DNA of 363 bases, taken from assembly GCF_003334385.1 (NCBI RefSeq), contig NZ_QOWN01000190.1, one strand, 5' to 3'. The notes beneath the pieces were generated by a model. It was given only the letters and a program-made list of their open reading frames with translations. It searched no databases and was not told the DNA's origin. Position numbers and translations under genes: made by a program. This document shows positions 1 to 363 of this stretch, piece after piece. The stretch comes from Escherichia coli. Lineage in GTDB: Bacteria; Pseudomonadota; Gammaproteobacteria; Enterobacterales; Enterobacteriaceae. The first letter of the stretch is position 1; each line of letters opens with the position of its first letter.

Positions 1-363
1 CTGCCTGATGGTGTGGAGACATACGGGGTGTGGGGACTCTCCCTGCCGTCACTGCGCCGTCGCCTGTTCCGCTGTGTGGCCATCCGGGAAAACACGGACG
101 GCACCTTTGCCATCACGGCGGTGCAGCACGTACCGGAAAAAGAAGCCATCGTGGATAACGGTGCCCGCTTTGAGCCGCAGTCAGGCTCCCTGAACAGCGT
201 CATCCCACCGGCAGTGCAGCACCTGACGGTGGAGGTGAGCGCAGCTGACAGCCAGTATCTGGCGCTGGCGAAATGGGACACGCCGAGGGTGGTGAAGGGC
301 GTGCGCTTCAGTCTGCGCCTGACCAGTGGAAGCGGTGAGAACAGCCGCCTGCTGACCACCGCC
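1..363 (+). CDS. J: Internal fragment (both ends outside the window) of a lambdoid-phage host specificity protein J homologue (tail tip attachment protein), central region upstream of the C-terminal receptor-binding part
   Basis: Seen in sequence: frame +1 is open across all 121 codons; third-position GC is about 77% against about 64% overall; CTG, GTG, CGC and GCC codons dominate, as in enterobacterial coding sequence. Recognition from memory: the translation aligns colinearly with the lambda J segment I recall as ...PDGVAEYSVWELKLPTLRQRLFRCVSIRENDDGTYAITAVQHVPEKEAIVDNGAHFDG...PPAVQHLTAEV...WDTPKVVKGVSFLLRLT..., including an identical block AITAVQHVPEKEAIVDNGA. Not verified by any search. 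Confidence 0.87.
   Translation, partial: MPDGVETYGVWGLSLPSLRRRLFRCVAIRENTDGTFAITAVQHVPEKEAIVDNGARFEPQSGSLNSVIPPAVQHLTVEVSAADSQYLALAKWDTPRVVKGVRFSLRLTSGSGENSRLLTTA
1..363. mobile_element. Part of a lambdoid phage or prophage tail-gene module; only context is implied, and no element boundary lies in the window
   Basis: Inference from the J-like CDS: J homologues occur in the late structural operon of lambdoid phages and prophages. No att site, integrase or element end is visible, so phage genome versus integrated prophage cannot be distinguished. Confidence 0.7.

Follow-up and report, generated by a model that had tools for sequence, protein, structure and literature searches.

What can the high GC content of a short piece of phage-like Escherichia coli DNA tell about the host in which it evolved? 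The stretch that we analysed, hereafter the window, is 363 nucleotides long. It holds 233 G or C residues among its 363 bases (64.2% GC), and the GC content at the first, second and third codon positions of frame +1 is 66.1, 49.6 and 76.9%, respectively. An earlier sequence-only reading had counted about 64% GC overall and about 77% GC at third codon positions (GC3) by hand. Both counts were exact on recount, which did not bring the GC content to a value close to 55%. That reading held the composition to be higher than that of phage lambda and took it as a sign of a different lambdoid phage or prophage, possibly one adapted to a GC-richer enterobacterial host.

The window comes from the interior of J, the tail-tip host-specificity gene. 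In a megablast search it matched positions 41856-42218 of PV340550.1 with 100% nucleotide identity, and these positions lie inside the coding sequence of Escherichia phage PhiR12_2 annotated as “tail tip host specificity protein J”. Six-frame translation showed that frame +1, which is the J reading frame, has no stop codon, and homology supports this frame only, among the six frames of the window. In blastp the translation matched lambda J residues 549-671 with 67% amino acid identity (E = 7e-54); phmmer matched it to residues 549-670 of the lambda gpJ chains 8iyk_J and 9e7m_Ja (E about 1e-47, and 8e-48 for 8iyk_J). At the nucleotide level the window is 74% identical to lambda J. The window thus belongs to the J gene (tail-tip / central fibre) of a temperate, lambda-like Escherichia coli phage. 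The features placed on it are as follows.

1-363, plus strand: internal fragment of J, codons 549-669 of PhiR12_2-type J, homologous to lambda gpJ residues 549-671 (nucleotide identity, phmmer, blastp).
1-180, plus strand: J residues 549-608, between the Phage-tail_3 hub domain (PF13550, residues 331-492) and the first Ig-like domain (Pfam scan, protein alignment).
109-165, plus strand: stretch coding for AITAVQHVPEKEAIVDNGA, identical in amino acid sequence in the window, lambda, BP-4795 and Stx2c alleles (protein alignment).
181-363, plus strand: first ~61 residues of the first Ig-like domain, Ig_J (PF24421, residues 609-712; Pfam scan, E = 2.4e-38).
1-363, minus strand: antisense frame whose third codon positions coincide with those of J, open throughout the window (six-frame translation).

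A Pfam scan of full-length PhiR12_2 J identified FNIII-A_GpJ (residues 86-207), Phage-tail_3 (331-492), Ig_J (609-712), Ig_J_second (714-816) and Phage_Tail_Tip (871-948); the gpJ domain architecture is thus present in the full-length protein that contains the window. Positions 1-180 of the window include its most conserved stretch by protein alignment, and positions 181-363 fall where J is richest in GC, in PhiR12_2 as well as in lambda. The C-terminal receptor-binding domain of J, which determines host range, is outside the window. The antisense frame, which in PhiR12_2 is stop-free for 627 nucleotides (41669-42295), was considered as a gene and set aside: an open frame of this kind is expected of GC3-rich coding DNA, and all homology evidence is on the plus frame. 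We judge it to be a by-product of GC3-rich coding rather than a gene.

The PhiR12_2 record has two further peculiarities. Its J (L001, PV340550.1 40212-43741) is annotated with 954 amino acid residues and is followed by a separate “tail fiber protein” of 164 residues. The region is collinear with an intact J of 1,176 amino acid residues in a prophage of E. coli STEC17-183 (L009 18357-21887; 3,742 nucleotides, 97.8% identity, 3 gap openings), and the phage record therefore has one or more frameshifts near codon 946, which may reflect either a true mutation or a fault of the assembly. Downstream (L001 45682-47963), an IS21-like insertion sequence of two genes, annotated as “Transposase / Integrase” and “ATP-binding transposition helper protein”, sits amid the side-tail-fibre ORFs.

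The GC content of the window is unusual relative to the host and to the phage average, and not relative to lambda at the equivalent place. Within the structural region of PhiR12_2 (mean 56.2%, SD 3.8) the window is in the top 0.7% of 363-nucleotide windows, and within its own J gene in the top 3.8% of in-frame windows. The whole PhiR12_2 J has 59.1% GC (59.9, 46.5 and 71.0% at codon positions 1, 2 and 3), the first 50 kb of PhiR12_2 51.1%, and lambda 49.9%. In STEC17-183, the prophage part has 54.2% GC and the adjoining host flank 46.9%, and the GC3 of eight E. coli genes flanking the prophage is 45-57%. When the window peptide was re-encoded with the codon usage of these flanking host genes, it had 54.4% GC and 51.1% GC3, and none of 5000 resamplings reached the observed values. 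Re-encoding with the codon usage of the rest of PhiR12_2 J gave 62.1 +/- 1.4% GC and 70.9 +/- 3.9% GC3, which places the observed composition in the upper tail of about 7% (uncorrected).

The homologous segment of lambda (NC_001416 17149-17517, J residues 549-671) has 62.1% GC and a GC3 of 72.4%. The window therefore exceeds it by 2.1 points in GC and 4.5 points in GC3, neither of which is significant (Fisher tests, p = 0.59 and p = 0.46, respectively). The claim that the window is GC-richer than lambda is numerically right and, at this level of significance, only weakly true. The accompanying impression that the lambda tail region is lower in GC holds for the whole lambda J gene (57.1%) and for the lambda left arm (56.9%), but is wrong for the segment that is homologous to the window. 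Paired substitutions between the lambda segment and the window comprise 38 AT-to-GC and 29 GC-to-AT changes (sign test p = 0.33); third positions differ in 56 of the 121 codons, with 20 AT-to-GC and 14 GC-to-AT changes. In non-overlapping 363-nucleotide bins, the GC profile along J is alike in PhiR12_2 and lambda, and the same bin (J nucleotides 1816-2178) forms the peak in both, with 64.5% GC. Re-encoding the window peptide with lambda J codon usage gave 61.7 +/- 1.3% GC and 69.9 +/- 3.9% GC3, the observed values being in the upper tail of about 4% (uncorrected), and 121 codons leave room for a small real upward GC shift of the window's allele family relative to lambda J usage. The high GC of the window is real, and we are highly confident that its composition is the normal one for this segment of lambdoid J genes.

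Both amino acid content and codon choice enter into this composition. By simple arithmetic, the excess of the window over the whole PhiR12_2 J is about 5 points, of which codon positions 1 and 2 together contribute about 3 and position 3 about 2. With equal use of synonymous codons, the window peptide would have 53.5% GC, as compared with 50.2% for the whole lambda J. Residues encoded by GC-rich codons, namely L, V, S, A, R, G, T and P, abound in the peptide and make up about 60% of what the segment has in excess of the remainder of J. Among its codons, CTG accounts for 12 of 13 Leu, GTG for 11 of 13 Val, CGC for 7 of 10 Arg and CCG for 5 of 7 Pro, while ATC, AAC and CAG are used in 4 of 4 cases each. 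All seven are among the commonest codons of E. coli; this use of common E. coli codons speaks against the GC-richer host that had been proposed. The codon adaptation index (CAI) is 0.38 for the window, 0.33 for lambda J and 0.23-0.36 for the eight flanking host genes, values that were calculated with Sharp & Li w-values and are indicative only.

The third-position component extends well beyond the window. The structural arm has a higher GC content than the rest of the genome both in PhiR12_2 (56.1% vs 47.7%) and in lambda (56.9% vs 44.9%). GC3 is raised in the late genes of both phages, with 0.68 in lambda J and 0.71 in PhiR12_2 J; most lambda late genes have a GC3 of 0.55-0.69, above that of the eight E. 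coli flanking genes (0.45-0.57). The preference for G/C-ending codons (CTG, GTG, CGC, CCG, ATC, AAC, CAG) is typical of the whole late structural arm of lambda-type phages, and this arm-wide preference is probably maintained in E. coli. The phenomenon seen in the window is already known, as a GC3-rich, codon-adapted structural half has been published for lambda: its genome consists of two halves that differ strongly in GC3, and in the structural one GC3 and CAI are both high (Lucks, Nelson, Kudla & Plotkin 2008, PMC2266997). Both patterns are non-random once the amino acid sequence is controlled for, the CAI of structural genes is raised independently of GC3, and the authors ascribe the CAI part to translational selection, by which the genes of structural proteins, virion components made in abundance, would favour the codons preferred by the host (PMC2266997). 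The GC3 component persists when CAI is controlled for (PMC2266997), and translational selection is therefore not a full explanation of the arm-wide bias. The per-gene GC3 table that we made agrees with this published work.

As to what causes the GC3 bias, be it selection or mutation, we infer three candidates, namely translational selection, an old foreign origin and GC-biased gene conversion, all of which apply to lambda as much as to the window. J is a low-copy virion protein, and an argument from expression level consequently carries less weight here than it would for the tail tube or capsid.

Where does the allele occur? Besides J of PhiR12_2, megablast found 100% identity over the whole window in J of Escherichia phage PhiR12_5, and identical sequence is also present in chromosomal prophages of E. 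coli STEC17-183 and JNEC-KY177. Other PhiR phages and BP-4795 are 95-97.5% identical to the window at the nucleotide level, and Stx-converting phages mostly 94-95% (megablast). Judged by these identities, the window belongs to a family of J alleles that is widespread among Stx-converting phages and other prophages of E. coli. Its source is thus indeed a lambdoid phage or prophage other than lambda, as the sequence-only reading had proposed, but what shows this is the divergence from lambda in sequence and not the GC content. The further proposal of a GC-richer enterobacterial host fails on the exact matches, which lie in E. coli phages and prophages of typical composition, an outcome that the sequence-only reading had itself named as a refutation.

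Of the 5,426 complete E. coli genomes searched, 3,134 contain a match to the window, at a median of 2 and a maximum of 13 places each; the matching places total 8,835, including thousands of copies with at least 90% identity. In PhiR12_2 the annotated order of the tail operon is that of a lambda-type J, which follows M, L, K and I and precedes lom and the side-tail-fibre genes. Similarly, in STEC17-183 an intact gpJ of 1,176 codons is preceded by the tape measure gene, M, L, K and I, in a prophage that adjoins a truncated ydfJ. This prophage, with its J segment identical to the window, abuts the truncated ydfJ at L009 27278-28561, a site that we take to be the locus of the Qin prophage in E. 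coli K-12.

One Stx2c-phage allele is mosaic. The J gene of Stx2c_JNE090279 (L007, LC727877.1 2501-2869) is 92-93% window-like before about nucleotide 120 and 90-100% lambda-like thereafter, as judged by identities per 60 alignment columns. The junction falls in or next to the stretch coding for AITAVQHVPEKEAIVDNGA (window 109-165).

Among the tblastn matches listed from the phage collection, all relatives with at least 90% amino acid identity are E. coli phages, mostly Stx-converting ones, and no relative at this level came from outside E. coli phages. For a species-wide search, in which each bacterial species was represented by one genome, we used a degenerate DNA probe for the conserved motif QHVPEKExIVDNGA. 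The probe matched nine contigs. Lambda-type J alleles were found in E. coli E69, E. albertii and Escherichia sp. E1V33, and divergent J alleles in a Raoultella metagenome-assembled genome (MAG) and two Edwardsiella species. Window-type J (~94-95% identical) was met only on two short gut-MAG contigs labelled Collinsella (L012) and Clostridiales (L016), which are probably misbinned enterobacterial / E. coli prophage DNA. A contig of 280 nucleotides from Algoriphagus aestuariicola (L011) is 100% identical to lambda over the 265 nucleotides aligned and is probably contamination with lambda DNA.

Composition of the segment was compared across these alleles. Seven complete Escherichia lambdoid alleles span 61.2-64.2% GC, with the window numerically at the top: E. 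coli E69 has 61.2%, lambda 62.1%, E. albertii 63.1%, BP-4795 63.6% and an Stx2c phage 64.0%, and the lambda-type allele of Escherichia sp. E1V33 (64.2% GC, GC3 77.2%) matches the level of the window. The Raoultella MAG allele, which is only 72% identical to the window at the nucleotide level, has 62.8% GC and a GC3 of 77.7%. Edwardsiella is a genus GC-richer than E. coli, and the segment has 50-57% GC in its alleles. More distant J homologues have 58.3% (Salmonella Gifsy-2), 48.3% (Yersinia), 42.5% (Serratia) and 45.2% (Mannheimia), and at 33-38% amino acid identity they are too remote to inform on the window allele. The idea that the GC of the segment tracks host GC was not upheld: the sampled homologues follow the composition of their own phage, and nothing in them indicates that the value of the window needs a GC-richer host.

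With these data, the origin proposed by the sequence-only reading can be weighed. It would make the window part of a lambdoid phage adapted to, or recently derived from, an enterobacterium of higher GC content, for example Klebsiella, Enterobacter or Raoultella, whose composition it still reflects. A GC3 of 77%, far above that of the E. coli flanking genes (45-57%), is in favour of this, the similar J segment of the Raoultella MAG (62.8% GC, GC3 77.7%) fits it, and so do the roughly 2 points of GC by which the window exceeds lambda. However, the Raoultella allele is divergent (72%) and no GC-richer than the Escherichia alleles, the segment is lower in GC in Edwardsiella (50-57%), and lambda has an equal local peak from which the window does not differ significantly. 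The exact matches are in E. coli phages and chromosomes, accompanied by the thousands of E. coli copies with at least 90% identity; relatives from another genus with at least 90% amino acid identity were absent among the phage-collection matches listed, and the species-wide probe met the window type only on the two short MAG contigs. In view of these exact matches, of how the allele is distributed among taxa and of a composition not significantly different from that of lambda, we reject a GC-richer host and consider it barely conceivable.

Two further explanations concern the arm or the gene as a whole. The entire lambdoid structural arm may be of ancient foreign origin, the head-tail module including J having come from a lineage of ~57% GC and drifted incompletely toward E. 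coli; its GC richness would then be historical and not selected, would apply equally to lambda and would not set the window apart. The sharp GC contrast between the arms of both phages is in keeping with this, as are the GC3 pattern that outlasts CAI control (PMC2266997) and the similar segment composition of alleles that are only ~72-75% identical in nucleotide sequence, the Raoultella one included. On the other hand, GC3 is high in both the window and lambda although 56 of 121 third positions differ between them, and the changes are balanced (20 vs 14), which looks like a maintained equilibrium rather than a decaying relic. The codons are moreover the common ones of E. coli, and the CAI of structural genes is raised independently of GC3 (PMC2266997), so that we regard an ancient foreign origin as unlikely. 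Still less likely, in our view, is GC-biased gene conversion, in which J, as a mosaic gene prone to recombination among co-resident E. coli prophages, would have its GC3 raised locally by repeated G/C-biased repair of heteroduplexes. Recombination partners exist, given the median of 2 and up to 13 copies per E. coli genome, a mosaic junction does lie inside the window in the Stx2c-phage allele, and the GC3 bias is not wholly explained by CAI (PMC2266997). But GC3 is raised throughout the late operon, beyond mosaic junctions, and amino acid content, acting through codon positions 1 and 2, is the source of ~60% of the rise above the remainder of J. A variant of the same idea, which we see as a long shot, is that the GC and GC3 peak on the hub-to-Ig-domain stretch, conserved across alleles that are ~74% identical, might mark a recombination hotspot where GC-biased conversion keeps GC3 high; if this were true, lambdoid J genes would be a natural system in which to measure biased gene conversion in phages.

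The preferred reading, a composition normal for this segment of lambdoid J genes, gives a negative outcome: the window is a J allele common among E. coli prophages, with the composition that lambda has at the equivalent place, an ordinary sequence that in itself matters little. Lambda-type late genes exceed E. coli by 6-14 points in GC, and individual domains by more. Local GC and GC3 over a few hundred bases of a phage structural gene are thus a poor guide to the host.

Among known systems, the closest are the J genes of E. coli lambdoid prophages and Stx phages (PhiR12_2, PhiR12_5, BP-4795, Stx2a_WGPS2, VT1-Sakai and the STEC17-183 ydfJ prophage), which are 94-100% identical to the window at the nucleotide level, have equal segment composition and the same K-I-J order, and differ from it in nothing of substance. 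Lambda gpJ (PDB 8IYK, 9E7M) is collinear with the window, with two one-residue gaps only, and its segment is likewise located between the hub domain and the first Ig-like domain and shares the local GC peak. It is, however, a different allele, with 106 nucleotide differences over the 121 aligned codons. Finally, the window lies within the half that is equivalent to the GC3-rich structural half of lambda (PMC2266997) and shares with it the high GC3 and the use of common E. coli codons, while differing as a local maximum within that half, partly owing to its amino acid content.
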